Source of the DNA: an uncultured Desulfobacterales bacterium
Lineage (GTDB): Bacteria; Desulfobacterota; Desulfobacteria; Desulfobacterales; C00003060
Assembly: GCA_964429315.1 (NCBI GenBank)
Contig: CAYSBQ010000001.1
Location: 1-54,767 of the forward strand
Length of the DNA stretch: 54,767 nt
Reading direction: 5' to 3'
Part shown: piece after piece, positions 10,328-42,535 of the stretch
Position numbering within the stretch: position 1 is the stretch's first letter
How the letters are laid out: the number at the start of each line of letters is the position of its first letter
Position numbers and translations under genes: made by a program
Notes under the pieces: generated by a model
What the model was told of the DNA's origin: nothing
The model's database searches: none
Seen by the model: only the letters and a program-made list of their open reading frames with translations

Positions 10328-10338
10328 AGGTATGTCTT

Positions 10339-11403: not shown

Positions 11404-11415
11404 GATTGACCTGAA

Positions 11416-11443
11416 CGAAAAACCCGGCCTGAGCCGGGTTTTG
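11416..11443 (-). terminator. Intrinsic terminator after the H1-like gene
   Basis: The minus strand reads AAACCCGGC-TCAG-GCCGGGTTTTT, a perfect 9-bp stem with a 4-nt loop and a T-run. An A-run on the other side makes it potentially bidirectional. Confidence 0.65.
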
Positions 11444-11458
11444 GTTTGGAGTGATAGT

Positions 11459-14744: not shown

Positions 14745-15012
14745 TTTGAACCCTCCCTTTGATCTTGTTCAGCAATTCCCCAAGTCTCTTTGAGTCTCCA
14801 TTCGCAAACGCTCGACTAGCCTCGAGCGCGTCACAGACAAGGAGATCGTATTCCTTGATAATCGAATTGGATTCATCGAGCGCTGAACCGAGTAGGGTCA
14901 CCGTTCTTTCGAGCATTATCACCTTATCCGAATCTCTCATCCACCGCGCACAGTAAAGTCCAAGCAGGAAGAACGCGAGCGAAGACAGTACTACGAAAGA
15001 CATGTCAGTCAT
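14713..15012 (-). CDS. Small N-terminally anchored membrane protein (99 aa)
   Basis: MTDMSFVVLSSLAFFLLGLYCARW is a hydrophobic helix. ATGA overlap with the upstream gene. Confidence 0.55.
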   Translation of the reverse strand: MTDMSFVVLSSLAFFLLGLYCARWMRDSDKVIMLERTVTLLGSALDESNSIIKEYDLLVCDALEASRAFANGDSKRLGELLNKIKGRVQNGIEDGNKTA

Positions 15013-19338: not shown

Positions 19339-21116
19339 TATTTAGGAACCTCCTCCATAACTTCCTCGAGGCATTGGTATAGTATTCGGTAGTCATCAAT
19401 CAGCATGTTCTGCCCTCTATTCAGGACTACGCCGGTAAGCTCCTTGTAAGCCTCCTTGGGTGACACACGTCGCTTCAAAACTGTCTCACAGTACTTCTTT
19501 AGAAGAGGCGTGGCGAGTTGCCGCAGCTTTGCGACGTCTTCAATGTTGTCGATATCGACTTCCTCATTATCGCCGGGCGCTTTCGCCTCCGGGGGCGCCG
19601 CGGTAGTTTCGACCACCTCACCTCCAACGCTCGGGTCGTGATCAACCTTTACCTCCTCAGGGACCCTCTCCTTATCTGGGGAATCTTTCTTTTCGTTTTC
19701 CACTGGCGGCTCAGGCTCTTTCTCTTCACGCTTTTTACGACGGTCTTCCTTGCCCCAGCGATTCAGCCGAACTTCAAACCCAGAATCGAGCAGTAGTCGG
19801 ATAGCGAATTTATCCTTCTTCGATCCAGCCACCTTCATGACCTTTTCCCCATCGAAGTATGAGTCTCCCTCTTTCCATTTTTTGCCACCCTCGCTTTCGT
19901 CAGACCTGTCTCTCCGGTCTACCTCGAGCCCATCATCGCTTACCGTGACACGCTGACCGCTATCGAGGGCAAGGACGGTTCTCCCGTACTTTTTGGCAAC
20001 AAGGATGATTCTTTCCTCCTTGTTGTACTTATCAAAGACTTTGAATCCGCCACGGGGAATTCCTACGTACTCACCCTTTGACCCCGCCGGCTCGCTCTCT
20101 TCATTATAGATACTCTGACTGGTTTGTCTTGGGCTTTCGAGCCCTGTCTCTTCTGAGCTTACTTCTCTGCCTCTGCTTTTCTCTAGCTGTTGCGGCGGTT
20201 CAACTGGTGGCTCAGGGACGATGACGGTGTACTCTTGTCCATCCTCACAAGACTGAAAAGCTCTACGCAGAGCCTGGCGCTCAGCCGCGACGGCCAGTTG
20301 ATTGTTAGGCTTCTCTGCCCAAACATGATTAGGCACCTTTTTTCCAGTTGTACGATTGTCTTTCCACTCATTGACGAGCTGTACAAATTCCCCGTATCTA
20401 GCCTCCCCAACGAATGCTGACCTTTGTCCACCTGGGCCATATCGATAGACAGTGACACTCGCAATCATCTCGTCCGCGTCGTTGATCTTCTCGATTCGAA
20501 ACACAGGTGCGTCTACCCCAGCGTAGAGGCCAGTCCTGGCTGCGACGGCACGGTATCCGTCAATCGTCTTGTCCCAGGTGATTCGATTCACATCGATCTT
20601 TTGCTTGTTGCCGCGCTCGTCTGTAATCGTCTTTTTGTATTTTCGGGAGTTCGGCCATAGCTGATTGTGAAAAATTGACAGACCAGTTTCCTCTTGCTCG
20701 ATGATACACATCGACACTTGGTCTTCTGTCAGCTCGAGGTCCCAATCATTTCTACATTTGAGACGAATCTTCTCTCTGGTATCTTCGTCGTGAATCGCGC
20801 TTTTTGGAGGCATTGGTTTTCTCTCTTCGTTTCCGGAGGCCCCGGATACTACAAACTCTCTAGGGTTCGTCATGTGCTTGAGCAACCCTTTACTTTTATC
20901 CGTGTCGTACCAACTGTACGACATTGTCACTACGCCATCGTTCGACATGACGGTGTAGCGCTTGGAGGTTTCACCTTTATTTATCTCGTGGCTAGTTACC
21001 TCGAGTATGAAGTCACCGAACGGATAAGCTCCGACCGGTGGGTCTTCATCAAATTTCCAGGCAGCTCGAGCTTCATCGATCTTCTTGAGAATTAGATCTA
21101 CCGACGTTGGCTGCAT
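19338..21116 (-). CDS. RecT/Redbeta-family single-strand annealing protein with a long charged C-terminal extension
   Basis: IDGYRAVAARTGLYAGVD...VTVYRYG...AFVGEARYGEF...VWAEKPNNQLAVAAERQALRRAF matches the RecT/Bet core, including the terminal A-E-x-x-A-L-R-x-A-F helix. About 280 extra residues, Glu/Lys-rich, follow. Confidence 0.65.
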   Translation of the reverse strand: MQPTSVDLILKKIDEARAAWKFDEDPPVGAYPFGDFILEVTSHEINKGETSKRYTVMSNDGVVTMSYSWYDTDKSKGLLKHMTNPREFVVSGASGNEERKPMPPKSAIHDEDTREKIRLKCRNDWDLELTEDQVSMCIIEQEETGLSIFHNQLWPNSRKYKKTITDERGNKQKIDVNRITWDKTIDGYRAVAARTGLYAGVDAPVFRIEKINDADEMIASVTVYRYGPGGQRSAFVGEARYGEFVQLVNEWKDNRTTGKKVPNHVWAEKPNNQLAVAAERQALRRAFQSCEDGQEYTVIVPEPPVEPPQQLEKSRGREVSSEETGLESPRQTSQSIYNEESEPAGSKGEYVGIPRGGFKVFDKYNKEERIILVAKKYGRTVLALDSGQRVTVSDDGLEVDRRDRSDESEGGKKWKEGDSYFDGEKVMKVAGSKKDKFAIRLLLDSGFEVRLNRWGKEDRRKKREEKEPEPPVENEKKDSPDKERVPEEVKVDHDPSVGGEVVETTAAPPEAKAPGDNEEVDIDNIEDVAKLRQLATPLLKKYCETVLKRRVSPKEAYKELTGVVLNRGQNMLIDDYRILYQCLEEVMEEVPK

Positions 21117-23367
21117 GTCCGGAGTCCCCTCTGTTTTCTTTCACCTGGGCCAAGAACTTATCAGCCTCTTCGTAGGTGCGCTTGGCAGTGTCGATCTCAT
21201 TGATGATGCCAACATTGTCGAGCGCCATGTCAAGGGCGTGCTTGAGTGATGCTGCTGAAACGGTGAAGACCTTGGATAGTCTCTTTAGAAAATCCTCTCT
21301 CTTTGTAGTCTTGACTGTTCCGCCATAGGCGTACTTCTTCTTTTCCTTGTCGGCATCATGCTGTTCGACTGCCTGGTTTTTCTGGTTCTGGTTCTTGATG
21401 ACGTCAAGCATCCGGTCGGCGTCGTCTGGGTTCTCTTCGATGAATCGGGAGATCTCCCTTCGCCATACGTTCTCGCATATCTTGCGAACGACGTCGCCCG
21501 TAGCGCCTTCGAGTCGCTTGGCGGCTGCATTCCATATCTCTTCCGTGTAGTCATCCGATAGCGGAAGGACGGACATGAATTGTTTTAGCAGATGCACCCT
21601 CTGCTCTTGGTCTAGTTTTCCGACAATCGATACGAGGGAGAATCGACGGATCATCGGCATTGGGATTCGGTCGGGGCTATTAGTCGTGCCCCAAACTGAA
21701 ACGCCAGGGTACTCGACCACGCCATCCATGATCATCTGGAACTCGAGGGATAGATTCATCTTCCCTGTTGACCAGTCGTTGTTGAGCACCGAATCGATTT
21801 CGTCGATGAGAATGTGTACGTGACGTCCGGATTCCTTGTGCAGCTTGATGGCTGCTTCGAACAATCGCTTAGGGTTCTTTTGGGCCTCGCCCATCCATGC
21901 TGTCAGGAAGTCTGAGCCCTGCGCAAAGATAGCGATGCTGTCCTCTTCGTTTGCGACAGCTCTCATGCACTCAGTTTTACCGCAACCCTGAGGGCCAATG
22001 AGGAGTACGTTGTTGCGATCTACAGACTTACGAGGCGAAGTCATAAGGTAGAGCGGTGACCACTTCTTCAGCGCTTTGATGTGGTCTACGAACTTCTTCA
22101 CATCCTCGAACCCGCTGCCCACGATTCTATCGAAGCTCGCGTATGGCTTCTTTCCTGGCACGACCTCGAGGTGCCCACTGCCCTGACCGAGCATGGGGTT
22201 ACCCTGAGAGATTCGGCACTGATAGAAGCTGTTGTCGACCAGGTAGTGATTCTGAAGCTCCTTGCACTTCTCCCAGACGTAATCCGCAATCTCGCCGGGT
22301 TGGGACTTCTCGTCTTTAAGCATGGAGCAGATTTCTCCAATGACCTCGTTTTTGAATTCGAGGTCGTGGATCTCCTGCTCAGTCATCGGTGACCCCAGAT
22401 CGCGGTACTTCACCCGGTTTGGATCCATATCCTCAAGTCCCCTCAAATTAGATTCGAACTTAGACCCTGAATCAAGCTTGATGCGACGATGCTTTAGAGC
22501 TGCAAAGTCTCCCATTTCATCTGAGTAAAGCTCCTCGAGAACCTTTGAGAACTTAGTTAGATCACGAAGGCGCGATCGGATGTGATATGAGAATGAAGAG
22601 CTGTCGCTAATTAGAATGTCTTTAAAATCAGGATTCTTGATCCACTCAATAAGCTCAATCGCCTTGCGACGAGAATACGCCGAGATTTCCGTACGGCTCG
22701 ATTCTTTTGAGACCTCGCCGTGATGTCGAATGTTCTCGAAGATCGTCAGCGCGAAGTCCGTGAGGATAGGGGTGTGCCAAACCTTCAGACCCATCTTACC
22801 GTGTCGGTCGGTTAGATTTACGAAGTACTTCTCCATAATTCGCAACATCTGAGCGGATAGATCGGTGACCGAATGCCTAAAGGCTGGCAAGTCCTCGAGC
22901 CCCTTAGTGAATTTAGCAACAGACGGTCCGTTCACCTGCTGCTCGAGCGATATATCTGCAAGTCGTTCTCTTTTCGTCAGGTTCTCTTCGCCATCCTCAT
23001 CGATATCCTCTAGATCTGGTATGTCAAACTGATTTGCGATTTGAACAAGGATCTGCCAGGCGCCGAGTATTCCGTGTGCGAAGTTCGCATGCATGTGGAC
23101 GAAGCTCGAGCTACCTCCGAAAGCGTGCTCTACATTGCGTGAGTCCCTCTCGTATTCGTCCATGTCCTGAAGCTCTCGAGAGAACCTCATGGTATCTCGA
23201 GCAGCCTCTCGAATAGATTGAATCCCACTCGATGTCGCCCTGTGTATATCTTCGGCTTCGTACAGCTTCTCTAATATTCTGCCCTGAGATTTTTCAAGCT
23301 TATCTTTATTTTTAGCCCCCTTAGAAACGATCTTCTTGATCTGTCTGTAGTTATGGATACTAATCAT
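21073..23367 (-). CDS. AAA+ ATPase (classic AAA clade) with a ~450-aa N-terminal region of unknown function
   Basis: LLIGPQGCGKTE (Walker A), HILIDEIDS (Walker B) and WGTTNSPDRIPMPMIRRF (second region of homology with Arg fingers). Confidence 0.85.
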   Translation of the reverse strand: MISIHNYRQIKKIVSKGAKNKDKLEKSQGRILEKLYEAEDIHRATSSGIQSIREAARDTMRFSRELQDMDEYERDSRNVEHAFGGSSSFVHMHANFAHGILGAWQILVQIANQFDIPDLEDIDEDGEENLTKRERLADISLEQQVNGPSVAKFTKGLEDLPAFRHSVTDLSAQMLRIMEKYFVNLTDRHGKMGLKVWHTPILTDFALTIFENIRHHGEVSKESSRTEISAYSRRKAIELIEWIKNPDFKDILISDSSSFSYHIRSRLRDLTKFSKVLEELYSDEMGDFAALKHRRIKLDSGSKFESNLRGLEDMDPNRVKYRDLGSPMTEQEIHDLEFKNEVIGEICSMLKDEKSQPGEIADYVWEKCKELQNHYLVDNSFYQCRISQGNPMLGQGSGHLEVVPGKKPYASFDRIVGSGFEDVKKFVDHIKALKKWSPLYLMTSPRKSVDRNNVLLIGPQGCGKTECMRAVANEEDSIAIFAQGSDFLTAWMGEAQKNPKRLFEAAIKLHKESGRHVHILIDEIDSVLNNDWSTGKMNLSLEFQMIMDGVVEYPGVSVWGTTNSPDRIPMPMIRRFSLVSIVGKLDQEQRVHLLKQFMSVLPLSDDYTEEIWNAAAKRLEGATGDVVRKICENVWRREISRFIEENPDDADRMLDVIKNQNQKNQAVEQHDADKEKKKYAYGGTVKTTKREDFLKRLSKVFTVSAASLKHALDMALDNVGIINEIDTAKRTYEEADKFLAQVKENRGDSGHAANVGRSNSQEDR

Positions 23368-31321: not shown

Positions 31322-32695
31322 CTATTGGCTCATAGCGATCTCTAGAAGCTTGTCTACATACTTGCGTTGATCTTTATCAAGTTTGTCCTCGAGCTTCATA
31401 AGTCGACGTGCGCCCTTCATTTCGTATAGCTTTTTGAGGAGCTTGTGGATCTTCTTGTCTTCGTCGGACTTCATGATCTTCTTGAAGATCACCATCTGTT
31501 CCTTAGATAAGGTCTCCTCGACAAGGTCCCATTGGTCCTTTTCATCGATCATCATCTTCAGAATCTCAACCATTACGGCAGTCGGGTTATCCTGAGCCTT
31601 CTTTAGTCCGGACTCCTCGAATACCTCGATGACTTGATCTTGTGTAAGCTCATCTCCATTCTCGATGGCCTTAACGATATCACTGCTAAGCGGTATATCT
31701 TTTCCGGACTTCGCATTGGAAGATTCTTTTTTACCGTCAAACTTCTTTCGTTTTTTAAACTTAGGCTTACCTGACCTCTGCTTTGCCTTATCGAGCTTTG
31801 AAGTTCTGGACTCTTTGCCATGCCCTTCATCCCCCTTTACCTTAGAGGTCATCGGCTTAGAGGATGCCTTAGGCTTCGACTTCGGCGTATCGTCATCGTC
31901 GTCATCGTCATCGTCATCTCCGCCTTTGCTGTTCACCTTCTTGAGGAGCGCCTTCATGAGCCCCTCGAGCGCTCCGGATTCCTTGATGGTCCCCATCGTC
32001 TCCCTCCATCGCTCAGACTTCATCTCCTCCTTTGCCTCTTCGAGCTTAAGATTGTCGTTGTGCATCTTAAGCTCTAGCTCATGCTTCATTCTTTCTCGTT
32101 CGATTTCAGCATGTTTGCGAGACGCATCCGAGATGATCTTAGACATCTCCTTATGCTCCTGCAGTAGAGGCTTAACAATGTTGTGCACAGTCTCCGACAT
32201 TGCAACGATCTGCGAGTGAAGCTCTCCGATGTACTCGCCTTGTTTGTCGACGAGATCGCCTTCCGACATCATCGTCTTCGAACGAGCCATTCCATCGCCA
32301 TCGCCGAGGTCGACGTGCTTGCTTCTTTCGAACCTTCCTCGTCCAGGTGGGCCAATCAGCATGACTCGGTAGGTTCCCGGGTCGTCTGATTTATCTATTT
32401 CAGCCTGCATGCACATCATGCAGTAGTCAGCGATATCTTCAGGGCTGGCAGTAGGCTTCGATTGCTTGTTCGGATTCTCCTGACAAAGGACCGTTGCAAT
32501 CTGTTCGTACTTTCCCCTCCTGACCATTCTGGAGATGATCGCCTTGTGGAGACCGAGGTGGCATTCCTCCAGCAGCGAAATCAAATCCGGGGGCGGACTC
32601 GGTGCATTCGGTGGCAAATCGAATTCCGGAGTGTGGGTCAAATCCTCGAAACTCATGGGAAGATCATACCAAGAATAGATTACAAAAGTCTCCAA
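31322..32695 (-). CDS. Highly charged coiled-coil protein with a poly-Asp run (scaffold-like)
   Basis: Long Lys/Glu-rich helical segments and an uninterrupted D-run (GGDDDDDDDDDDTPK). The track start 32695 is a TTG; the first in-frame ATG is at 32656 (MSFEDLTH). Neither start has a clear SD. Confidence 0.65.
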   Translation of the reverse strand: METFVIYSWYDLPMSFEDLTHTPEFDLPPNAPSPPPDLISLLEECHLGLHKAIISRMVRRGKYEQIATVLCQENPNKQSKPTASPEDIADYCMMCMQAEIDKSDDPGTYRVMLIGPPGRGRFERSKHVDLGDGDGMARSKTMMSEGDLVDKQGEYIGELHSQIVAMSETVHNIVKPLLQEHKEMSKIISDASRKHAEIERERMKHELELKMHNDNLKLEEAKEEMKSERWRETMGTIKESGALEGLMKALLKKVNSKGGDDDDDDDDDDTPKSKPKASSKPMTSKVKGDEGHGKESRTSKLDKAKQRSGKPKFKKRKKFDGKKESSNAKSGKDIPLSSDIVKAIENGDELTQDQVIEVFEESGLKKAQDNPTAVMVEILKMMIDEKDQWDLVEETLSKEQMVIFKKIMKSDEDKKIHKLLKKLYEMKGARRLMKLEDKLDKDQRKYVDKLLEIAMSQ

Positions 32696-32878: not shown

Positions 32879-33328
32879 ATGGCAAAAGAAGCTGCACTCA
32901 AGGACGTCTCCAAGCAAGAACTCGCAGAGAGCTACTCCAAGCTCAAGTCGCGCACCAAGAACGCTCAGGTCCAGGCCAAGCGCGAAGGTGAAGCTCTTGT
33001 CGAAGACGTCATCACGATCGCCGCCGGTGGCGGACTTGGCTACATCATGGGTCAGCGTCACGCTGATGCTGCGGAAGCCGCACTCAAGGAAGGCCACACC
33101 GAAGGCGACGAGAAGTACAACGAAGCTGTCGCTGCCGGTGGCCAAGTTGCCGGAATCGACCTCGACCTTCTGGTCGGTGGTGCCGCGGCTGCAGCTGGTG
33201 TGCTCAAGCTTGGTGGCAAGATGAGCAACACCGTCCGCAAGGTCGGAATCGGTGGTCTCACCGCTTATGCAGCACGCATGGGCTACGAGAAGGGCGAAGA
33301 CTCCGTCACCGAGGCGGAAGAAGAGTAA
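32879..33328 (+). CDS. Gly/Ala-zipper membrane-associated protein (149 aa)
   Basis: Three Gly/Ala-rich hydrophobic segments (VITIAAGGGLGYIMG, LLVGGAAAAAGVLKLGG, VGIGGLTAYAARMG) between amphipathic charged helices. First gene after a 183-nt divergent intergenic region. Confidence 0.7.
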   Translation: MAKEAALKDVSKQELAESYSKLKSRTKNAQVQAKREGEALVEDVITIAAGGGLGYIMGQRHADAAEAALKEGHTEGDEKYNEAVAAGGQVAGIDLDLLVGGAAAAAGVLKLGGKMSNTVRKVGIGGLTAYAARMGYEKGEDSVTEAEEE

Positions 33329-33356
33329 GAATCACGTTCGAGTCCTCGAGGAAAGG

Positions 33357-33421
33357 ATAGGGGGATCTAGGCCGGTAGGAGGCCTCCCCTATTCCAAGAG
33401 GTAGCCGGGGGCTTCCCCCGG
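33357..33421 (+). other. Two GC-rich hairpins in the intergenic region (structured RNA or attenuator; no T-run)
   Basis: ATAGGGGA (33357-33364) pairs with TCCCCTAT (33385-33392). CCGGGGG (33405-33411) pairs with CCCCCGG (33415-33421) around the loop CTT. Confidence 0.4.
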
Positions 33422-33517
33422 ATTCGGAAAACAGGACAGATCCTCCTCTTTTCGAATCAGGACAAAAACACAACTCTGGGATGCTCCCAGAATCAAAGAA
33501 AAAAGAGAGAAAAGACA

Positions 33518-34156
33518 ATGTCTGGATTCCGTTTTGCACAAAATTCCAATCAGGGCGGCCTCGCCCAATACGCCGGTTCGCAGAGTGCTGCGTACGCCGC
33601 CAGCGCTCCGACCATGCGTGGTCGCGGTCAAGGTAGCGAAGGCATGGTCCAGTTTGGCCATGGTGGCGACAAGTTCTACGCTGGCCAAGGTGGCGTAGAA
33701 ACCTACCCCGGCTGCTACGGCCTGCCCACCTACTGTGGTTGGCAGCAAGTCGCAGGTTCGGCTGATATCGGTGCTGGCGCTGCCGGTGTCGTTTCGGTCG
33801 TGCCGACCGTCAGTCCGTTCTTCGAGCCCAAGGCCGTGTACCTTTTCGGTATCGACCCCAACGCTCCCGGAACGAACTTGCGTTTCACGGTTGGCGCCGT
33901 GACCGTGGGTGGTAGCCCGCAGCTGGCGATCAACACCCTTACCCCTGCGGGTGGTGGTGCTGGTTCGCCCGCTGAGCTGTTGAGCGACGTGTTCAACCGT
34001 TCGGACGAGCCGCTCCTGGTGAACTGGTCGGTCTTCTCGACCGTCGGTCTTGCCCGCGAGTTGCAGATCAGCGTGTTCAACTTGAACGCTCAGGCCATGC
34101 GAATCTTCGCATGCATCTGGGGCAACGCTGTGACGTCGCTCGACTGCTACGCGTAA
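33518..34156 (+). CDS. Small beta-rich structural protein (212 aa); candidate major virion or jelly-roll-type protein
   Basis: A Gly/Ala/Gln-rich N-terminal arm is followed by alternating hydrophobic beta-like segments (AVYLFGIDP, LRFTVGAVTVGG, LLVNWSVFS, LQISVFNLN, RIFACIWGNA). Long purine-rich leader, and the gene is followed directly by a strong terminator. Confidence 0.7.
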   Translation: MSGFRFAQNSNQGGLAQYAGSQSAAYAASAPTMRGRGQGSEGMVQFGHGGDKFYAGQGGVETYPGCYGLPTYCGWQQVAGSADIGAGAAGVVSVVPTVSPFFEPKAVYLFGIDPNAPGTNLRFTVGAVTVGGSPQLAINTLTPAGGGAGSPAELLSDVFNRSDEPLLVNWSVFSTVGLARELQISVFNLNAQAMRIFACIWGNAVTSLDCYA

Positions 34157-34178
34157 GCGATAGCAGGGTTCGACCCCC

Positions 34179-34221
34179 GAAAGGGTCCTGGGGACACCCC
34201 CGGGACCCTTTCTTGTTTTTT
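34179..34221 (+). terminator. Intrinsic terminator after the 212-aa structural gene
   Basis: GAAAGGGTCCTG (34179-34190) pairs with CGGGACCCTTTC (34201-34212), allowing a G-U, around a 10-nt loop, followed by TTGTTTTTT. Confidence 0.65.
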
Positions 34222-34256
34222 ATCCAAGCAGGTACAATAAGGTCTGGAGACTCGTA

Positions 34257-35387
34257 GTGGGCGCAAAGGGGCAGACGGGACAAAGCAGATTCGCTCTGAC
34301 ATCATCCGCGCAAGGCGCGGTGGTTACTCGGCCGACGACTGGGCAGATTCGGAATGCTCAACGGGCTGAGGTTTCTCGTTTTAACGATCCGAGGGTAGCC
34401 CTTCCGAATCCAACGGCGGATGCACCTTTCGATCGGACCAGGCCGCAGCCGTACGAATCGAAGGTCAAGGGCCTTGGTCTGGCGCCGAATGTACCACGTC
34501 ATTTCTGGCAGCTCATAAAAGGTGACGCTGGAGCCGGAAGTTCTATCTTTCGGCGGATCAGCCTTTTTCAGCAGCTCGCTGTTTCGGGCGCTCGAGTTGC
34601 TTCGACTCCTTATAGCAAGGCGATCCAAGTCGCTACGATGAGGTCGACAGATCAACGACCGCGCTATTTCCAGGTCAGCCTGTTTTCGACCGGTCGAGTT
34701 ATCGAGACGGATGTACCGATTGGTCCAGTTCCGGATGATGAGATTCTAAGATTCTCTCCGGGTGTACCCCAAAGCTTTGTTCCTCTCGCGGGATTCGATG
34801 TAGCTCGAGCTGTCCCTCTTGTTTCGACGACGAAGTTCCGGATTATGGTTCATGACGAATCCGGACAGAGATTCTTCGACGTCGATGTTGTTGGAACGAG
34901 GAGTCTGAACCTTTATGCGTGGGGTGTAACTGTTTTCGCCCTCATAAAGGAAGAGGGCTACGAGATCGATCGACAAGGCGCCGATCAAGAGCAGTTCAAT
35001 GGAATGCTCGACCAGGCCATTGCCGGCGCGCGAATCATTCCTATTCGTTCAAACTTCACGCAAAACGTGAATCAGAGAACGGTATCGATTTTTATTCCGG
35101 CGGAGATTGCGATCTCCATTGTCCCGATCCCCCCTGGCGCGAAGACTGTACAGGCGTTTTGCGCTGATGGGTCCGCAGGATTCGCTAGGTTCTCCGTTTT
35201 ATTTGTAGACATTGACCCAATCAACAGCGGCGTCTCCGGCGCTATCGGGACGCTGGGGGTGATCGATCCTGAGCCAGGCACCGGGACATCTGAGATTTAT
35301 AGGATCCCCGACTCGAATGCGATATTCTTGGTTCGACTCGGAGTAGACCCAGCTATCTTCACGTTCGTGTTCGAGGAGACGCCATGA
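34257..35387 (+). CDS. Capsid-candidate paralogue 1 (376 aa, GTG start)
   Basis: Homologous over its full length to the next two genes. Shared blocks: FNDPRV.LPNP...PFDRT.P, GDAGAG.S.(F/Y)RR, R(Y/F)(F/W).(V/I)S, (I/V)MV(H/F)DESGQRF(F/Y)DVDV.G.RS...YAWGV, GAR(I/V).PI, NRT(V/I), (V/I)PIPPGA..VQ and a C-terminal F(V/I)FE. GGAGA lies 7 nt upstream of the GTG. Confidence 0.75.
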   Translation: MGAKGQTGQSRFALTSSAQGAVVTRPTTGQIRNAQRAEVSRFNDPRVALPNPTADAPFDRTRPQPYESKVKGLGLAPNVPRHFWQLIKGDAGAGSSIFRRISLFQQLAVSGARVASTPYSKAIQVATMRSTDQRPRYFQVSLFSTGRVIETDVPIGPVPDDEILRFSPGVPQSFVPLAGFDVARAVPLVSTTKFRIMVHDESGQRFFDVDVVGTRSLNLYAWGVTVFALIKEEGYEIDRQGADQEQFNGMLDQAIAGARIIPIRSNFTQNVNQRTVSIFIPAEIAISIVPIPPGAKTVQAFCADGSAGFARFSVLFVDIDPINSGVSGAIGTLGVIDPEPGTGTSEIYRIPDSNAIFLVRLGVDPAIFTFVFEETP

Positions 35388-36463
35388 CCAGAAAAAGAAT
35401 CGGTACTGGCGATATAAGGGATATGCAGCGTGCGGATGTTCAGCGCTTCAATCGCAACGGCGTCTACCTTCCAAATCCAACAACGTCGCCAACGCTAGAT
35501 CGCCATAAGCCGATACCAAGCGACGAAAAAGCTCGAGCGTTTGGACTTGAGCCGGTTTCTCCGAAGCGTCTGTTCGATCTACCTGCCGGAGACGCTGGCG
35601 CGGGTCAATCTGTCTATCGTCGCATCCATGCTTTTTATGGGCAAGGGATAACCCAGGCCGCGCGGACGAACTACACAAAGGCGCTGGCGATCATCACAAA
35701 CAGGTCTTCGACCCAAACTGCGAGATACTTCCACGTATCGATCTACGGATTCGGAGTACGAAGAACTGGGAACGGCGTCGTACCATTCAATCCTCTGAGT
35801 ATTGCGGAAGCGCAAGATCGTCAATTTGAACAGATCTACCTAGACGACGTCGCTCAGACTCCGATTACGCCAAGATTCGTACCTTCGGTTCTTACCGCTC
35901 AAGCTCGAGTGATGGTCCACGATGAATCTGGCCAAAGGTTCTACGATGTTGACGTTATCGGTAGTAGATCTTTCAGCGTGTACGCCTGGGGCGTATCTGT
36001 ATTCTTACTCGTAAAGCCCGATGGGTACGAGGTAGATGCTCAGAACCCCGAAGGAAGTGAGCCGATACTCTCTGACGTCGGTGTAGAAGACGATGTTGTC
36101 GGCGCCCGTGTGCTTCCGATTTTCACCAACCTTACAGAAAATCAGCAGAACAGGACGATAACAATCACGATAGACCCTGCAGTATCTGTCGCTCGAAGAA
36201 TCATTCCGATTCCGCCAGGCGCGAGACGCGTTCAAATCTTCTCCAATGAGCCCGACCCAGGTGCGGTTCCATGGGAGATGGATTTTTGGACAGGGCGAGC
36301 GGCGCTTGGAACAAGGCCCGATCTTGGAATCATTGACTGGGAGCCCGGCCAAGCGAAGACATCGATGGTGGAAATTCCAAATGCATCCGCCATCGCCATC
36401 CGCCCATTAGATCCAGGAGCCAGGGCAACAGGCTTCTCACTCGTATTTGAGGTCGAACCATGA
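35384..36463 (+). CDS. Capsid-candidate paralogue 2 (359 aa)
   Basis: Shares the same conserved blocks. ATGA overlap with paralogue 1, GAGGAG SD, N-terminus MTRKRIGTG. Confidence 0.8.
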   Translation: MTRKRIGTGDIRDMQRADVQRFNRNGVYLPNPTTSPTLDRHKPIPSDEKARAFGLEPVSPKRLFDLPAGDAGAGQSVYRRIHAFYGQGITQAARTNYTKALAIITNRSSTQTARYFHVSIYGFGVRRTGNGVVPFNPLSIAEAQDRQFEQIYLDDVAQTPITPRFVPSVLTAQARVMVHDESGQRFYDVDVIGSRSFSVYAWGVSVFLLVKPDGYEVDAQNPEGSEPILSDVGVEDDVVGARVLPIFTNLTENQQNRTITITIDPAVSVARRIIPIPPGARRVQIFSNEPDPGAVPWEMDFWTGRAALGTRPDLGIIDWEPGQAKTSMVEIPNASAIAIRPLDPGARATGFSLVFEVEP

Positions 36464-37707
36464 CCAGAAAAAGAAATCTCAAGAACAGGATTCATACGCC
36501 GCCTGATGTTCAGCAGCAGCATGCAGATCACCTGGCCAATATTGCGAACATGCTTTCACAGGAGCAGACCGGCAATCATGGAGTGATGTACCCGAACGGA
36601 AGGCCGAACATCAGTCAGGTGAGGGATCTCGAGCGGGCGATGCAGCAGCCGTTTAACGATCCACGCGTCATGCTGCCCAATCCATCGGCAAGCGCACCTT
36701 TCGATCGCACCGAACCGCTCGACCGTGTTGCAAAGAATGAGGCGTTCGGATTCCAGGTCCAGCCTGATCGGATTATCGATCTACCGCCCGGCGATGCCGG
36801 CGCTGGGCAATCCGTCTATCGTAGAACGCACATCTTCGCGCGTCTCAATGCGTCGACTGCTCCAGATGACCCTGTTGCAGGAAATCCATTCGACAAGGCT
36901 ATCGGAATGGCGACCTACAGGTCGAGCGATTGCCGCCCTCGATTTTGGCATATCTCATTCTTCGGAATCGGTGTTCAGCGAGTCGCTAACAATGTACCGC
37001 TAAGCCCTCTCACAAACAATGAGATCCTCAGTCAGCAACTAGACCCTGTCACCAACAACGTATTGCCTACTGGAAGATTCATTCCTTCAATCTCGCAGAT
37101 GAAGGGGCGAATCATGGTCTTCGATGAGTCGGGGCAGAGGTTCTACGACGTCGACGTTTTAGGTAATCGGAGTCTCGATATCTACGCCTGGGGTGTAACC
37201 GCATTCATTCTTGCGCCTGGAAACAACTATGATGGTCAGCCAGATCAATCCGCCTATGAGGTAAACGCTCAAAATGGAGGAACCCCAATCCCTCAAACAC
37301 AGCTCGAGGGATTGGTTGAAGACTCTTTGATCGGAGTACGCATTGTCCCGATCGTAATTAACAGTACTCAGAATACTGAAAACAGAACGATCACGGTTGT
37401 GACGCCCGGCGGCGCCGATCCAGGGCCAACGAGAGTCCCGATCCCTCCAGGCACCCTGAGGGTTCAGGTTCTATGCCATGACGGAGCGACGGTTGCGGCG
37501 ACATACCGCCTTGAATTCGACGCTGGAGATGACGGCACATTTCTGGGAAGGAGTGATCTTGGTTTGCTCGAGTTCAATACGGGTCAAGCAAGAACTGATC
37601 TAATGCTCGTGCCCAATTGCTCACAGATTATTATAAATCCACCAGTCGCGCCTCCGCTTGTAGGCACTGTTGGATGGTCATTCATCTTTGTCGTGGAGGC
37701 GCAGTAA
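36460..37707 (+). CDS. Capsid-candidate paralogue 3 (415 aa)
   Basis: Shares the same conserved blocks, with a longer N-terminal arm and insertions. ATGA overlap with paralogue 2. N-terminus MTRKRNLKNR. Confidence 0.8.
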   Translation: MTRKRNLKNRIHTPPDVQQQHADHLANIANMLSQEQTGNHGVMYPNGRPNISQVRDLERAMQQPFNDPRVMLPNPSASAPFDRTEPLDRVAKNEAFGFQVQPDRIIDLPPGDAGAGQSVYRRTHIFARLNASTAPDDPVAGNPFDKAIGMATYRSSDCRPRFWHISFFGIGVQRVANNVPLSPLTNNEILSQQLDPVTNNVLPTGRFIPSISQMKGRIMVFDESGQRFYDVDVLGNRSLDIYAWGVTAFILAPGNNYDGQPDQSAYEVNAQNGGTPIPQTQLEGLVEDSLIGVRIVPIVINSTQNTENRTITVVTPGGADPGPTRVPIPPGTLRVQVLCHDGATVAATYRLEFDAGDDGTFLGRSDLGLLEFNTGQARTDLMLVPNCSQIIINPPVAPPLVGTVGWSFIFVVEAQ

Positions 37708-37708
37708 G

Positions 37709-38176
37709 ATGGCAGAATACAAATTTGTCATTCGAACTGAAGACGACAATGTATCTGATGACGAAATGATTCAGCAGGGGCTCGCCGCCATCTGGTCAGC
37801 AATCAAGATAAACATACTTTATTTTAAACGCAATCCAGACGCTGTATGCGCGCTCGCTTGCGGCAAAGTGAAGTACGACTCAAAAAACAAGGACGTTCTA
37901 TCTATGATTGGGGAGATCAGCACGGCGCCGATTCTCATCAAAGATGGAATGGGTCTTTGCATCGACATTGTTGCATTCGATGTAGCGACAAAGCTTTACG
38001 AGGGGCTCGAGGTGTGGCCTCACATTTTTTCGCGTGGAGGAGGTATCTACCATGTTGTGACGCAGGGTTACGATGGAGCCGGTCAGGTGATAGAATACGA
38101 CCCATCCGCAGAACTTGAACAAAGAGGCTTCGCGGTCTCGCATCAGCCTGACAGTTGCCAGGCCTGCCACGTCTAG
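37709..38176 (+). CDS. Transglutaminase-like / papain-fold cysteine protease candidate (155 aa)
   Basis: Trimmed to the ATG 37709, with GGAGG 9 nt upstream. GMGLCIDIVAF (Cys), about 37 aa later GGIYHVVTQ (His), about 17 aa later VIEYDPS (Asp). This reproduces the C-H-D order and spacing of the transglutaminase-core fold. Confidence 0.5.
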   Translation: MAEYKFVIRTEDDNVSDDEMIQQGLAAIWSAIKINILYFKRNPDAVCALACGKVKYDSKNKDVLSMIGEISTAPILIKDGMGLCIDIVAFDVATKLYEGLEVWPHIFSRGGGIYHVVTQGYDGAGQVIEYDPSAELEQRGFAVSHQPDSCQACHV

Positions 38177-38190
38177 AAAGGCAAAAGAAA

Positions 38191-40050
38191 ATGGCATCGA
38201 GAAGAACCCGCTCAAAAAAATCAAAGTCCAATCGAGGTGCTCGTCGCTACGGCGATTGTCGCCCACACGCGCCATGCGCAGAGTCAGAAGGCGGAGCCCG
38301 AAAGTACGGATCTATCGGCCATGTCGTTTCCGGATTTGACCATTATGGCTATCCAATCGTTCGGAACATGAGGCTGCCCAAGCCGTTCTCGATTCAGGAT
38401 GGTCGCAAATATGGCGCTGCCCAAAGCATGATTCAACCGATGCGCCTCGTCGCCGTCGGACCCAATGGGGTTCCGCCAGTGCCTAAGCCGGGGATCGCCA
38501 AGGTCGGAGTGTTCAAGCTCAAGCCTTCACCATCGGTGCCTGGCGCTCCGGATAGCCTCCCGTCTCAATACAAGTTCTGCGTGCAAAAAGGCGAGCACGG
38601 ATATTTTTATCGGTTCCGAAACGCGAAGACCTCTTTGCACGGCGCCGAGGCTGAGGTGCTGGGATGTGAGCCCGACGAGAACGGGATGGCCATCTGCACG
38701 GTCAAGATGCCTGGGAGTGATCGGCCTTATAAGGCTCCGCTTTGCGAGGATGCTGGATCTGACAAAGAGCCCGTCCCCGTCGACTGCTGCGTCAAGCTTC
38801 TTGGTGACGAGTCTGGCCAGATCATCTGCCCGGGATCGTCTTACGACCTGCTTGTCGTGAATGTCGTGACGACCTCACCGGTAGGCGGCGTCTTGGTTGC
38901 ATCCGTTTCTCACCCGGACATCCCAGGCGGCGGTGTCCGTTTGCCGATTTGCGAATCCATCGATGAGACTCCGGAAGATCGCCCTTGTTGTATCGAGGAA
39001 AAGACCGGGCTCATTGTGTGTCCCGAGGGTGTCGACTTCCCGCTGTCCGGTAAAAAGATTCCTCTCGAGTTCCTTGTGTTCGCAACAGAGGCAGACGGAA
39101 GCCGAGTTGCGCGCCTGAAGTGCGGAGACATCATGGCGCTCGACCCGTCTCTGCGCGTATCGGATGCAACGCTCGATTCAATGTGGATGATTTGCGAAGA
39201 GTTGGGTGGATACATCTTCCCAATTTGCGATCGCCGGACGCCTGTGCCTCCGCCAAAAATTCGATTCCCTGACGCGCCTCCTCCACCAAAGGTTCCGGAT
39301 ATCTGTTGCTACGACCCTCAGACCGGAACTCTCGTGTGCGAGGGTACGCAATACCACGGCCTCCCTGTTGAGGTCGTGACTGAATCCACAATCGGCGGTA
39401 AGTTGATCGTTTCCGTTGCGAGCGACAAGCTTCCCGGTGGCGGTGCCCGACTTCCAATTTGCCCGCCACCTGCAGACATTCCTCGATTGCCCCCAGCCGA
39501 TTGCTGCGTCATCGAGTCATCTGCTGGCCTTGTCCTTCTGTGCGACCCGAAAGACCACCCTTGGAACAACAAGGACGTCAGCCAATTTGGGCAATGCATA
39601 GATACTCCAAACGGCCGGATGTGCGTGCTGAAGTGGACGGATGAATACGGAGAGCACTTGCTCGAGGTTCCAGCCTGCCCACCTCCGCCCCCTGCTCGAA
39701 CCCCACCGGGTGGAGAGGTCCCTCCTCCGCCTGCAGTCCGACCCGATCCAGTACCGCGTCTTCCACCACCTTCGCGCCCGCCTGCTGATGCATGCGACAC
39801 GGTTGAGGGTAAGCGGTGTCGAGCGCTTTGGGATGAGATGATCTCCAAGCCTGCGAAGATGACCAAGTGCGATAAGAAGTGGACCGAGCTTCTCAAGAAA
39901 GTTCGTGAGCAACGCACTGGACCTGGGCGTCGAGCAAGCTCGATGGATAACCACAAATCGAAGGCTCGCAAATACGGAATGGGCATCCCACCCGAGAGCC
40001 GAAGGTATGCTCGATTCCCGGGGCTTCGGGGTGGAAGGAATACGATCTAA
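38191..40050 (+). CDS. Cys/Pro-rich modular structural protein (619 aa) with a basic N-terminus
   Basis: Trimmed to the ATG 38191 (MASRRTRSKKSKSNRGARRYG). Four modules open with CC-x(6-8)-G-x-(I/L)-(I/V/L)-C and close with (L/F/V)P(I/A)C, for example CCVKLLGDESGQIIC...GGGVRLPIC and CCYDPQTGTLVC...GGGARLPIC. Also has poly-Pro tracts and four [AG]R[RK]YG motifs. Confidence 0.75.
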   Translation: MASRRTRSKKSKSNRGARRYGDCRPHAPCAESEGGARKYGSIGHVVSGFDHYGYPIVRNMRLPKPFSIQDGRKYGAAQSMIQPMRLVAVGPNGVPPVPKPGIAKVGVFKLKPSPSVPGAPDSLPSQYKFCVQKGEHGYFYRFRNAKTSLHGAEAEVLGCEPDENGMAICTVKMPGSDRPYKAPLCEDAGSDKEPVPVDCCVKLLGDESGQIICPGSSYDLLVVNVVTTSPVGGVLVASVSHPDIPGGGVRLPICESIDETPEDRPCCIEEKTGLIVCPEGVDFPLSGKKIPLEFLVFATEADGSRVARLKCGDIMALDPSLRVSDATLDSMWMICEELGGYIFPICDRRTPVPPPKIRFPDAPPPPKVPDICCYDPQTGTLVCEGTQYHGLPVEVVTESTIGGKLIVSVASDKLPGGGARLPICPPPADIPRLPPADCCVIESSAGLVLLCDPKDHPWNNKDVSQFGQCIDTPNGRMCVLKWTDEYGEHLLEVPACPPPPPARTPPGGEVPPPPAVRPDPVPRLPPPSRPPADACDTVEGKRCRALWDEMISKPAKMTKCDKKWTELLKKVREQRTGPGRRASSMDNHKSKARKYGMGIPPESRRYARFPGLRGGRNTI

Positions 40051-40877
40051 TGACATGGAGAATTAATCGTCGCTATTCGAAGACTGGCGGTCGCGGGTAC
40101 GGAGAGGATTCCGCACCTGCCGCTAGGCCTGAGCCTCCGCGCCCAGTGCCATCCGCCCGTCCACCTGGGAGACCGACTAATCCAGGTCCAACCCAAGGCT
40201 TCATTCCGAACCGTGGGAATACCCAGGGGTTCATTCCGATGCCTGGGCCGACCCTGAAGTTCATTCCCAAGGGTGACAACACTCCGTTCCACCCCCCTGG
40301 CCCAGGTATCGGAATCCGCCCAGGACCACCGCCTGCGCTAGGTCGACCTGGGATTCTCCCTCGGGACCATGGCTCATGGAAGAACGACAGCTGCTTCTCT
40401 CCTGGTAGTCGAGGATGGAAGCCGGACATCATGTCCATCGGTGACGCGCATACGTGCCCAGGCGAGAAGGGTCCGCAAAGCCCTTTTCGTCCACCGAACA
40501 CGAGCGGTGATTCCTATGGCTACAACACAAAGCTGTTCCGTGATGAGGACAGCGTTGGCGAGGCGCTTAATTATATCGGATATAGATCACCCGATGGAAA
40601 TGCGATGCTGCGAGATTTTCAGAGGCACTGGAACGCAGTCATTTCTGCGCTAGCGCTTTCGCCAATGCGTTTCGCAAACATGATGTTCAAGATTCTGCCT
40701 GAGGGCAATCTGCAGGTCGACGGTGATATCGGACCTAATGTCCTCAACGCTCTCGAGGCCGCATCCATCAACCAGAAGTTTTCGAACCTTCGCTGGCCGG
40801 ACATTGTCGAGATCACCACGACTTCCGATAATGGATACGGACGAACGCGACTCTACAACGCTGCTGAGGGAATGTGA
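40050..40877 (+). CDS. Basic-leader protein with a Pro/Gly-rich region and a PG_binding-like C-terminal domain
   Basis: MTWRINRRYSKTGGRGYG, short repeats TQGFIPNRGN/TQGFIPMPGP/TLKFIPKGDN, then PPNTSGDSYGYNTKLF...ALNYIGY...FQRHWN...VDGDIGPNVLNALE. TAATG overlap with the previous gene. Confidence 0.7.
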   Translation: MTWRINRRYSKTGGRGYGEDSAPAARPEPPRPVPSARPPGRPTNPGPTQGFIPNRGNTQGFIPMPGPTLKFIPKGDNTPFHPPGPGIGIRPGPPPALGRPGILPRDHGSWKNDSCFSPGSRGWKPDIMSIGDAHTCPGEKGPQSPFRPPNTSGDSYGYNTKLFRDEDSVGEALNYIGYRSPDGNAMLRDFQRHWNAVISALALSPMRFANMMFKILPEGNLQVDGDIGPNVLNALEAASINQKFSNLRWPDIVEITTTSDNGYGRTRLYNAAEGM

Positions 40878-41476
40878 TGTCGAGCCCACCGAACTTGTCA
40901 AAAGACCCTGATGGGTACAACCGAAAAATGTTCCGCAGCGAGCGAGCGGTGCGACGCGGGTTCATGATGATTGGGTACCCAGTAAACCCAGGGGTACACA
41001 GGGTGCCGAAGGAGACTGTCCTTCAGTTTCAAAAGGACTACAACAAGTGCTCCGATAGATTCGGCCAATGGGGAAAGATTGTAGAGAATAGTTCTCTCGA
41101 TATCCCGAGCCTAAACGCGCTCGAGCACGCCATACGATGGTCGAAGAAGCGTGAGAACAAAGAGGGGATCCCCACAGCTCGGTCCTGGCAATCGCTTTGC
41201 CACGCCGCGCCCGGAGATTCATGCGGCGGAGAGAGGCGAATCATCGCTTCTCGAATTGAGGAGCCTGCGGCATACGAGACGAAATACATCGAGGTAGCCC
41301 CTCAGGGCACCGCAAAACTTCGGGACACCGAGACCGATCTAGCTCTCAGAGCCGAAGTCGTCGGCTTTGAGAGGGACGGCAATGTCGTATTCGCCATTGT
41401 GAAAATCCCACCCCAGGCTGATCTTCCTGGTGGCCGCGAAGCTCCGTTCCGTTGCCCTTGCGTATTGGGACGATAG
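40874..41476 (+). CDS. PG_binding-like domain protein (200 aa), paralogous to the C-terminus of 40050..40877
   Basis: PPNLSKDPDGYNRKMF...GFMMIGY...FQKDYN...IPSLNALEHAIRW aligns with the neighbouring genes. ATGA overlap. Confidence 0.7.
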   Translation: MMSSPPNLSKDPDGYNRKMFRSERAVRRGFMMIGYPVNPGVHRVPKETVLQFQKDYNKCSDRFGQWGKIVENSSLDIPSLNALEHAIRWSKKRENKEGIPTARSWQSLCHAAPGDSCGGERRIIASRIEEPAAYETKYIEVAPQGTAKLRDTETDLALRAEVVGFERDGNVVFAIVKIPPQADLPGGREAPFRCPCVLGR

Positions 41477-41485
41477 GAGATTTAG

Positions 41486-41980
41486 ATGACCAGAAGATAC
41501 GGAAGACACGGCAGAAAGATGAACGGCGGGCGCACCTATGCGGCTCCCCCAGATGGTCGCGCCGCGTTACTTCGTCTTCTCGATCAATTCCATGCGTCCT
41601 ACCTTATCTATCGAGAGGGGCACTGGACCGTAAAGGGAAAAGGTTACTATGGTAATCATCTTCTTTTGGAGAGGGTCTATAGTGAAACCGAGAAGGAGAT
41701 TGACGATCTCGCTGAGATGATCGTTGGATCATTCGGACCGGGCATCATCGGAAGCAGGGACGATAGCTCTTCGAGGTGGGCGGAGGATTTCAGGAATCCA
41801 GTCGACCCAATGAGAGGCGCTCTGAAAGCAGCCCGAGTTGTCCGAGCTAGTATCGATGACTCGTATAGATCCCTCAAGGAGTCCGGAGAGATGACCACTG
41901 GGTGGGATGACTTACTGATGTCGTTGGCCCAGGAGAAAGACAAACATCTGTACCTGCTTCAGCAGGCCACCGCGGAATAG
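41486..41980 (+). CDS. Dps-like (ferritin superfamily) protein with a basic N-terminal leader
   Basis: LLRLLDQFHASYLIYREGHWTVKGKGYYGNHLLLERVYSETEKEIDDLAEMI matches the Dps signature (L..Y.k...HW.V.G..F..LH..fee.Y.e....D.iAErI). It includes both His and the D/E of the ferroxidase site. EKDKHLYLL lies near the C-terminus. The leader is MTRRYGRHGRKMNGGR. Confidence 0.7.
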   Translation: MTRRYGRHGRKMNGGRTYAAPPDGRAALLRLLDQFHASYLIYREGHWTVKGKGYYGNHLLLERVYSETEKEIDDLAEMIVGSFGPGIIGSRDDSSSRWAEDFRNPVDPMRGALKAARVVRASIDDSYRSLKESGEMTTGWDDLLMSLAQEKDKHLYLLQQATAE

Positions 41981-41989
41981 GAAAAGACC

Positions 41990-42535
41990 ATGACCAGAAG
42001 AAACGGAAGACACGGAACTAGATACAATCGCATGGGGGGACCAGTCAGGGGAGGCGCATCCAGAGGTCTGGCAGCCCCAGCCCCCAATGTCCCGCCTAAT
42101 CTAAGTGGCAATCCTGCGGGCTACAATAAAGTTCGCTTCCCAAGCACCAAAAGTGTTATCTCGGAGCTTCAGGGGCTCGGGTACACGGCGATCTACAATC
42201 CCAAGGCTGCCTTCGTGAGATTTCAGCAGGATTATAATATCGTCCATAAGTATAGCCCCAAGCATGCTCCAGGTACCCTGGTACCCGATGGAGTTCCTGG
42301 GATAAACACTCTGAACGGTATGGACTGGGCGACTCGCATGGTCAAGACCATGCCTAAGAGCTGGATTTACTACGTCAAAAAATTCCGCTCGATGGGAACC
42401 GACAAGCCGAGCAGCCCAGTGCCTCTTTTCCCTAAGCCTAAGCCTAGCGGTCCAACGCGTCCGGGAAAGCCTAAGCCTAAGCCTGGTGCGAGTAAACCGA
42501 TAGGTCGTCGCCGCAGCCGTCGCCGTAGCCGGTGA
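41990..42535 (+). CDS. Basic-leader protein with a PG_binding-like domain and an Arg-rich tail
   Basis: MTRRNGRHGTRYNRMGG, then PPNLSGNPAGYNKVRF...LQGLGY...FQQDYN...VPGINTLNGMDWATRM, then a KPKP-rich tail ending GRRRSRRRSR. Confidence 0.7.
   Translation: MTRRNGRHGTRYNRMGGPVRGGASRGLAAPAPNVPPNLSGNPAGYNKVRFPSTKSVISELQGLGYTAIYNPKAAFVRFQQDYNIVHKYSPKHAPGTLVPDGVPGINTLNGMDWATRMVKTMPKSWIYYVKKFRSMGTDKPSSPVPLFPKPKPSGPTRPGKPKPKPGASKPIGRRRSRRRSR

Follow-up and report, generated by a model that had tools for sequence, protein, structure and literature searches.

Double jelly-roll capsid proteins consist of one chain of ~330–415 amino acids (aa) with two consecutive β-sandwich domains, and the known bacterial and archaeal viruses that use them have genomes of ~10–20 kb. 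More generally, the genomes of known bacterial and archaeal viruses with jelly-roll capsids are small and, to our knowledge, all known bacterial viruses above ~50 kb are tailed phages with HK97-fold capsids. In the Helvetiavirae (P23-77 VP16/VP17; SH1 and HHIV-2 VP7/VP4), whose capsids are built from two vertical single jelly-roll proteins, the genes for a small jelly-roll protein and a larger one with an additional domain lie side by side, adjoining a packaging ATPase gene. In their pseudo-T=3 shells, picornaviruses use three diverged jelly-roll paralogues with N-terminal arms (VP1, VP2 and VP3), made in equal amounts through polyprotein cleavage, and Nucleocytoviricota combine large genomes with several diverged copies of jelly-roll capsid-type proteins, the copy number of the major capsid protein (MCP) paralogues varying between lineages. 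Here we describe a four-gene module on NCBI contig CAYSBQ010000001.1, the whole of which (54,767 bp) is the window analysed in this study. The window most likely derives from an undescribed lineage of large phage-like double-stranded DNA viruses. The module encodes a 212-aa protein with a single jelly-roll (SJR-212) and three tandem paralogues (par1, par2 and par3), which appear to be jelly-roll-type viral structural proteins, a kind already known, in undescribed families.

The three paralogues align end to end with 41–43% identity and ~100 invariant columns, and all of them contain the blocks LPNP, GDAGAG, DESGQRF.DVDV.G.RS, YAWGV and PIPPG...VQ. Both junctions between them are ATGA stop/start overlaps embedded in one and the same 18-mer, CCATGACCAGAAAAAGAA. 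It has no occurrences other than those at 35382 and 36458, against none expected by chance. The initial annotation, made from the sequence, had described full-length tandem paralogues of 376, 359 and 415 aa with ATGA junctions; the coordinates, identities and shared 18-mer bear this out, and every motif block that it listed is present in the alignment. Conservation is highest in an acidic hairpin motif, (H/F)DESGQRFYDVDV; the His of (H/F)DESGQRF is replaced by Phe in par3. The 106 clusters related to par2 resolve into three clean orthogroups, whose members share at least 48% identity with the corresponding paralogue of the window, as against ~40% with the other two. The retention of three stable orthogroups argues for non-redundant roles. 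Conservation in the par2 orthogroup is even along the chain (66% in the disordered arm versus 61–62% in the folded domains), with no hypervariable tip. A conserved arm and the lack of such a tip fit an assembly protein better than a receptor binder, which weakens the idea that the paralogues bind receptors. A glycine-rich motif at the end of the N-terminal arm, GDAGAG(Q/S)S, is invariant in all three paralogues and reads GDAGAGKS in par3 of the related locus L001. We rejected it as a nucleoside triphosphatase site, because the similarity of GDAGAG(Q/K)S to a P-loop is one of form only and the model has low confidence there; the motif might instead be a hinge or a maturation cleavage site.

The fold of the paralogues was predicted for par2 with AlphaFold2 (AF2), using an alignment of 59 sequences (predicted local distance difference test (pLDDT), 80.4; predicted template modelling score (pTM), 0.64). 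In the model, residues 1–76 are modelled with low confidence as an arm containing two short helices, eight β-strands lie within residues 77–246 and ~7–8 more within residues 255–357. Each paralogue is thus predicted to comprise a conserved N-terminal arm and two jelly-roll-like β-sandwich domains. In whole-chain Foldseek comparisons, the matches have E values of 4e-5 to 5e-7 (the values against double jelly-roll capsid proteins reaching 5e-7), but their geometry is poor, with template modelling (TM) scores of only 0.13–0.25 and root-mean-square deviations (rmsd) of 16–28 Å. A PBCV-1 capsid chain and an asfar-like capsid homologue are among the top matches. The others include a nodavirus capsid protein, STIV B345, the C381 turret protein, PR772 P3, vaccinia D13, the Faustovirus and tectivirus GC1 MCPs, and virophage MCP homologues, alongside XepA, bicupins and some tail-fibre or minor-tail proteins. 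The model therefore places the paralogues in a fold class, that of two jelly-roll-like sandwiches, with membership of the double jelly-roll capsid proteins not established. Profile–profile alignment (hhalign) of the hidden Markov models (HMMs) of the paralogue family (A2) and the SJR-212 family (A3) revealed no relationship (probability 0.7%), so the paralogues are not detectably duplicated SJR-212 domains.

The AF2 model of SJR-212, based on 58 sequences, shows an eight-stranded jelly-roll with a flexible N-terminal arm. Residues 75–212 form a confident β-domain (pLDDT > 90) and residues 1–70 are disordered (pLDDT < 50), in agreement with the earlier description of a disordered arm followed by β-strands. 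Its best matches in the PDB (Foldseek) are single jelly-roll capsid proteins, and they are weak (E, 0.008–0.08; TM, 0.24–0.45). They include capsid proteins of a nanovirus, Panicum mosaic virus (tombusvirus-like), nervous necrosis virus (nodavirus), enteroviruses (picornavirus), a sobemovirus, CMV, STMV/STNV and PCV2, and extend to the capsid accessory chain 7eel_H of cyanophage Pam1, Ena fibre subunits and nucleoplasmin. As modelled, these matches show a fold class, not homology. The comparison against known capsid folds that the initial annotation had called for thus returned capsid proteins as the best matches of both families, at TM values of 0.13–0.25 for par2 and E values of 0.008–0.08 for SJR-212 that do not secure the assignment. 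SJR-212 has two cysteines in a connector ahead of the jelly-roll, YPGCYGLPTYCGWQQ, and two near the C terminus (FACIWG...LDCYA); its orthologue in the distant relative L012 is even richer in cysteine (GDCCDVPKACNW ... NPCHDCPL). The Ena endospore-appendage subunits (7a02 and 9i0y) are likewise small jelly-roll proteins with an N-terminal cysteine-bearing connector. The match has an E value of only ~0.02, and the context here, unlike that of Ena, is viral; by this analogy, disulfide cross-linking of SJR-212 is a speculation.

Several features mark SJR-212 as a candidate major structural protein. Its effective number of codons (ENC) is 39.7, whereas the values are 53–58 for the paralogues, 52–61 for genes as short as its own and 47–61 for all window genes other than itself and the preceding gene, g149, which has the strongest codon bias in the window (ENC 32.7). 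The leader upstream of the gene is moderately structured, and a hairpin with a T-tract directly follows it, so that the placement of the gene between structured RNA and a strong terminator, as originally proposed, stands, with a leader of moderate stability (Table 1). The hairpin recurs at the same place with 12–17 bp in the window and in L001, L005, L007, L009, L010, L011 and L012, its structure being kept but not its sequence. SJR-212 is 71–90% identical across relatives in which the paralogues are 33–62% identical, and it has 109 homologue clusters, with orthologues 64–93% identical. By the codon-bias and terminator proxies, the paralogues are not the most abundantly expressed structural genes. 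An additional arrangement is found in L004 (ENA ERZ26692762 ctg83676; 221,287 bp), which in record 2758-23534 has a second locus (10001–11886). One gene there encodes a 258-aa SJR-212 paralogue (54% identical) whose tail is rich in Lys and Arg, and the next encodes a 364-aa protein in which the jelly-roll domain occurs twice in tandem, with 42% and 27% identity to SJR-212. Domain duplication in this protein is still visible at the sequence level, and similar double-domain proteins occur elsewhere (P0208, P0210 and P0215). For distant relatives of the SJR domain, the contexts L014 and L015 were uninformative.

The number of paralogues varies between related loci. Three copies lie between the SJR gene and the downstream gene g168 in the window, L001 and L007, and two in L009 and L011. 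The distant L012 has one copy, its 185-aa SJR protein being followed by a 331-aa family member. There is none in L005/L006, where a TnpB gene occupies the slot, or in L010, where the slot holds a 142-bp spacer. The paralogue family is accordingly not universal in the lineage, being absent at the syntenic locus in L005/L006 and L010. In a tree of four flanking genes (892 columns, 200 bootstraps), the zero-copy pair grouped in 200 of 200 replicates and was nested within multi-copy lineages in 193 of 200; the loss is therefore secondary. L005 (NCBI CCXVIB010000008.1; 216.5 kb) also has a LAGLIDADG intein in its helicase (L005 positions 1–2174) and two TnpB (IS605 OrfB) genes inside the structural block (10638–11813 and 15333–16487), one of which occupies the exact paralogue slot of the window.

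The surrounding gene order is conserved. In all eight genomes examined, the block runs helicase, primase, g457 on the opposite strand, g149, SJR, the hairpin, the family members, g168 and the cysteine-rich g631. The g457 protein has 11 Asp residues in a row, after which comes a basic stretch rich in Lys, Ser and Pro, and its orthologues hold the same position in L001, L005, L007, L009, L010, L011 and L012 (36–58% identity); a role as a scaffold or chaperone is only a guess. The g149 protein has one predicted hydrophobic segment and orthologues in all relatives (38–83% identity). Orthologues of g168 are likewise present in all relatives (34–69% identity). In the window, g168 starts one base past the par3 stop; in L012 it has an ATGA overlap with the single family member, and in the zero-copy L010 it comes directly after SJR. 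The g631 gene is kept in all relatives (39–63% identity), and its product could be a spike or fibre. Searches of Pfam, PHROGs and NCBIfam returned nothing useful for g149, g168, g457 or g631, the sole match being a weak one between g457 and a PHROG of unknown function.

Table 1. Features of the module and of other parts of the window (positions in the 54,767-bp contig).
Feature	Position	Strand	Description
Tad6 homologue	15009–15710	−	Type I Thoeris inhibitor; Pfam PF25188, E = 6e-34
764-aa AAA+ protein	21073–23367	−	Cdc48/VCP/Vps4-type domain, E = 4e-30 to p97
g457	31322–32695	−	Divergent, highly charged; conserved left neighbour of the module
g149	32879–33328	+	Small Gly/Ala-rich protein with hydrophobic glycine-zipper-like segments; always precedes the SJR-212 gene
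Leader of SJR-212	33329–33517	+	Minimum free energy −65.3 kcal/mol versus −55.4 ± 4.3 for shuffles, z = −2.29
SJR-212	33518–34156	+	212 aa; single jelly-roll, ~70-residue disordered Gly/Ala/Gln arm
Terminator-like hairpin	34179–34222	+	15-pair stem with 10 G–C, then tail TTGTTTTTT; directly after SJR-212
par1	34257–35387	+	376 aa, GTG start; orthogroup of 18 clusters; A2 HMM E = 1e-140
par2	35384–36463	+	359 aa; start overlaps par1 stop (ATGA); orthogroup of 46 clusters
par3	36460–37707	+	415 aa; start overlaps par2 stop (ATGA); longest N-terminal arm; orthogroup of 42 clusters
g168	37709–38176	+	155 aa from ATG at 37709; Cys-containing, acidic; always after the paralogue slot
g631	38155–40050	+	29 cysteines; three or four CC...G..(I/L)(I/V)C(P/E)G repeat units with proline-rich linkers between them
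g275	40050–40877	+	Domain common to g275, g200 and g181; tblastn cross-matches against the loci, 29–35% identity
g200	40874–41476	+	As g275
Dps/ferritin-like protein	41486–41980	+	Pfam Ferritin, E = 1.4e-7; within the late block
g181	41990–42535	+	As g275
N-terminally anchored late genes	43937, 45384, 46110, 47506, 47968, 50408, 51154, 51576, 52100, 53006, 53480, 54017	+	
C-terminally anchored late genes	46991, 49730	+	

Building on the paralogy, coupling, fold class, copy-number series and its polarity, expression proxies and synteny observed here, we tentatively propose, at a little under even confidence, that SJR-212, with g149, is the abundant major component and that the paralogues form a lower-abundance, equimolar hetero-oligomer docking onto the SJR-212 structure. 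The conserved block would open a presumed virion operon (g457 on the minus strand, g149, SJR-212, the terminator, zero to three family members and g168), and the three paralogues would have arisen by lineage-specific tandem duplication of one ancestral gene encoding an arm and two sandwiches. They would be translated off one message at a lower level than SJR-212 and, owing to the overlapping stop and start codons on that message, in roughly equal amounts. The products may then assemble as a hetero-oligomer, for example a 1:1:1 complex, and dock through their conserved arms onto the structure built by SJR-212. Such a complex would act as a specialised or accessory capsomer, a vertex or a surface complex rather than as the bulk shell, and would have been dispensed with in one lineage.

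Some points weigh against this proposal. Codon bias and a terminator are proxies for abundance, and we infer the virion location of the module proteins, their hetero-oligomerisation and their stoichiometry. The par2 structural matches have low TM values (0.13–0.25) and a very large rmsd, and tail fibres, XepA and bicupins hold similar β-sandwiches. L005 and L010 lack the family at the locus, so its function is either dispensable there or assumed by another gene. Finally, a canonical HK97 head module could lie elsewhere in the genome, in which case SJR-212 would be a decoration or cement protein.

The virus setting rests on the gene content of the window, which includes proteins recognisable as RecT, a Cdc48/Vps4-type AAA+ ATPase, an SNF2-type helicase, a primase-polymerase/D5 protein, an amidase with a peptidoglycan-binding domain, an M23 peptidase, a homologue of the Tad6 anti-Thoeris protein and a Dps/ferritin-like protein. 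RecT, the helicase, the primase-polymerase/D5 protein, the two cell-wall enzymes and Tad6 together support the viral nature of the element, the last because it is an anti-defence gene, and the predicted gene set is that of a phage-like virus of a peptidoglycan-bearing bacterium. The related contigs (89.5, 145, 160, 168, 193, 216.5 and 221 kb) are all metagenomic. The sole hint of a host for the virus group is Planctomycetota, through the binning of one par2-related cluster in a metagenome-assembled genome of that phylum. The window contains no tRNAs or Rfam matches.

Both protein families and the virus group appear undescribed. SJR-212, par1–par3 and 48 distant family members had no match in Pfam, PHROGs or NCBIfam, the A2 and A3 profiles found nothing among all PDB sequences even at E values up to 10, and no match to par2 or SJR-212 was found by tblastn in 50,697 phage records. 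Neither family had relatives in IMG/VR or the GTDB representative genomes. The 106 clusters related to par2 are all hypothetical proteins from metagenomes, and JGI metagenome contigs of 35–90 kb carry both families. With an exhaustive profile search, the paralogue family grew to 83 clusters at 50% identity, of which ~50 are distant members of 270–330 aa that match the β core alone, none of them annotated. Full-text literature searches yielded no description of the virus group.

The four module genes head a long block resembling a late operon. Between 43937 and 54682 on the plus strand, at least 12 consecutive late open reading frames (ORFs) start with a hydrophobic helix directly followed by poly-Lys (for example, MAKSAAPLLLLGGAALLLVSSKKKKK), and several very basic proteins are encoded downstream in the block. 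Membrane-anchored proteins in such numbers point to a particle that contains lipid or to heavy remodelling of host membranes; an internal-membrane icosahedral virion is an inference. The initial annotation had named an HK97-type capsid, portal and terminase set on the same contig as an observation that would overturn a capsid module of several paralogues. Pfam and PHROG searches of all window ORFs of at least 275 aa and most of the smaller ones detected no HK97 capsid, portal, terminase or tail gene, and the precomputed Pfam annotation of ten related loci of 15–21 kb (~150 kb) contains none of these hallmark genes. The 15.5-kb contig L016 extends 10 kb past the right end of the window without an annotated hallmark gene. 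The remaining large unannotated window ORFs encode charged-helical or low-complexity proteins. No packaging ATPase of the FtsK/HerA type (A32-like) was found in the window or is recorded in the related loci, the only P-loop proteins of the window being the SNF2-type helicase, the D5-type primase-helicase and the Cdc48/Vps4-type AAA+ protein. The last, a 764-aa protein with the sole strict Walker A motif, was considered as a packaging ATPase and rejected, being Cdc48/VCP/Vps4-like; it adjoins RecT and has a 450-residue N-terminal part of unknown type, which is unusual for a phage.

In working logic, the module comes close to three described arrangements: the capsid–penton pairs of PRD1-like viruses, the small–large jelly-roll pair of viruses of the P23-77 and SH1 types and, by analogy, the picornavirus protomer of three equimolar paralogues. 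As in the Helvetiavirae, genes for a small jelly-roll protein and a larger protein are adjacent, the pair matching the ancestral one-copy state in L012, and an internal-membrane virion is plausible. Unlike in that group, the larger partner can be lost or triplicated and no packaging ATPase adjoins the pair; chains of the VP16/VP17 type are not among the top 50 structural matches of par2 or SJR-212. The three diverged paralogues with N-terminal arms recall picornavirus VP1, VP2 and VP3, and enterovirus VP chains are among the SJR-212 matches. Here, equal amounts would come from translational coupling instead of polyprotein cleavage, and picornaviruses are small RNA viruses with one jelly-roll per chain, so that the likeness would be one of logic only. 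The large genomes and multiple diverged copies resemble those of Nucleocytoviricota, which differ in their eukaryotic hosts, in an A32 ATPase and a family B polymerase that were not seen here, and in lacking any sequence relationship to the module proteins.

The first alternative is the model of the initial annotation, in which the three paralogues form a heterotrimeric double jelly-roll capsomer, the main capsid unit, and SJR-212 is a small addition, such as a penton. In its favour, the modelled number of strands agrees with double jelly-roll capsid proteins, and these proteins head the Foldseek lists as the best structural neighbours. A single jelly-roll gene adjoins a larger one, as in the capsid–penton pairs of PRD1-like viruses, polintons and virophages, and equimolar coupling of three paralogues would suit a heterotrimer. 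Many membrane-anchored proteins are encoded downstream in the same operon, as in double jelly-roll systems, and no HK97 set is seen in the window or the loci. However, major capsid proteins vastly outnumber penton proteins, and here it is SJR-212 that is strongly codon-biased, has a terminator to itself and is the best conserved, whereas the paralogues are average; the proxies thus make the small protein the abundant one. The copy number of zero to three is a further difference from double jelly-roll systems, as two copies ill fit a trimeric capsomer and zero copies a major capsid protein. The paralogues also lack sequence similarity to double jelly-roll capsid proteins, reach TM values of 0.25 at most and have a second domain of only ~105 aa, and the par2 model has no helix between the would-be F and G strands. 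An FtsK/HerA ATPase is absent from the window and the loci, and the genomes are 90–221 kb. We consider this model unlikely. What remains of the original capsid-module claim is the jelly-roll fold class and the virus setting, with matches that are weak (TM ≤ 0.25). The copy number, the average codon bias and the faster divergence of the paralogues argue against the division of roles that it assumed.

Alternatively, the contigs could belong to a tailed jumbo phage with HK97 genes outside the window, with the paralogues serving as tail fibres, baseplate parts or receptor-binding proteins and SJR-212 decorating or cementing the head. The related contigs reach 145–221 kb, and about three quarters of a genome of ~200 kb lie outside the window and the loci. 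The viral Foldseek matches include minor tail and tail-fibre proteins, SJR-212 matches the Pam1 capsid accessory chain 7eel_H, variation in copy number is typical of host-range genes, and the replication genes resemble those of tailed phages. Against this, the paralogues show even conservation without a hypervariable tip domain, and no tail, baseplate, portal, terminase or HK97 match occurs in a contiguous late-gene region of ~32 kb (~22 kb of the window plus 10 kb beyond it in L016) or in the Pfam annotation of the ten related loci. The families are also missing from IMG/VR and the phage records, though present in the 35–90-kb JGI contigs. We regard this explanation as distinctly unlikely.

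It is improbable that the paralogues are non-virion, bicupin-like enzymes or effectors acting on the host or its envelope and expanded by an arms race. In favour of such a role, the PDB matches from Foldseek include vicilins, canavalin, oxalate decarboxylase and a PNGase, the top-conserved motif is the acidic hairpin (H/F)DESGQRFYDVDV, the copy number is variable, and the contig also encodes cell-wall enzymes and an anti-defence protein. Against it, the cupin His/Glu metal-binding motif is absent, with no invariant or near-invariant His among 59 sequences, and a long N-terminal arm that is both conserved and disordered would be unusual in an enzyme. In addition, coupling of the genes within the conserved SJR–g168 block is tight, and there is no Pfam (cupin included), NCBIfam or PDB sequence match.

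Other genes of the late block have features of their own. The g275, g200 and g181 proteins constitute a second small paralogue family in the same operon, and g181 has a net charge of +30. A basic N-terminal motif is common to many late proteins, including the Dps-like protein (MTRRYGRHG), g181 (MTRRNGRHG) and g232 (MTHRFGR). Related forms occur in par2 and par3 (MTRKR), in g631 (R(R/K)YG, repeated) and in SJR-212 (GFRFAQ; RNRYSFSQ in L012); the ORFs concerned start at 41486, 41990, 42565, 40050, 35384, 36460, 38155 and 33518. The motif may be a common targeting, packaging or cleavage signal.

Across contigs of 90–221 kb, a recurrent syntenic block thus combines jelly-roll-type and membrane-anchored proteins; genes for a head, a tail or packaging are not recognisable in the parts covered. 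Even on a conservative reading, the A2 and A3 HMMs are practical markers for recovering a virus group overlooked by current pipelines. A more far-reaching and doubtful interpretation is that the contigs represent a new high-rank lineage of non-tailed, membrane-containing bacterial viruses of ~90–220 kb, with jelly-roll-based particles and possibly Planctomycetota hosts. If so, the particles would consist of an abundant single jelly-roll protein and one to three two-jelly-roll paralogues in heteromeric capsomers, the group would be a jumbo-sized bacterial counterpart or sister of the jelly-roll virus realm that virus-detection pipelines have missed, and the second locus of L004 would capture a jelly-roll duplication whose halves are still recognisably alike in sequence. 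If particles are built from the module proteins, jelly-roll capsid architecture would extend to jumbo-size bacterial viruses, and the loci would offer a natural series of zero, one, two and three copies in which to study the duplication and specialisation of capsid-type proteins.

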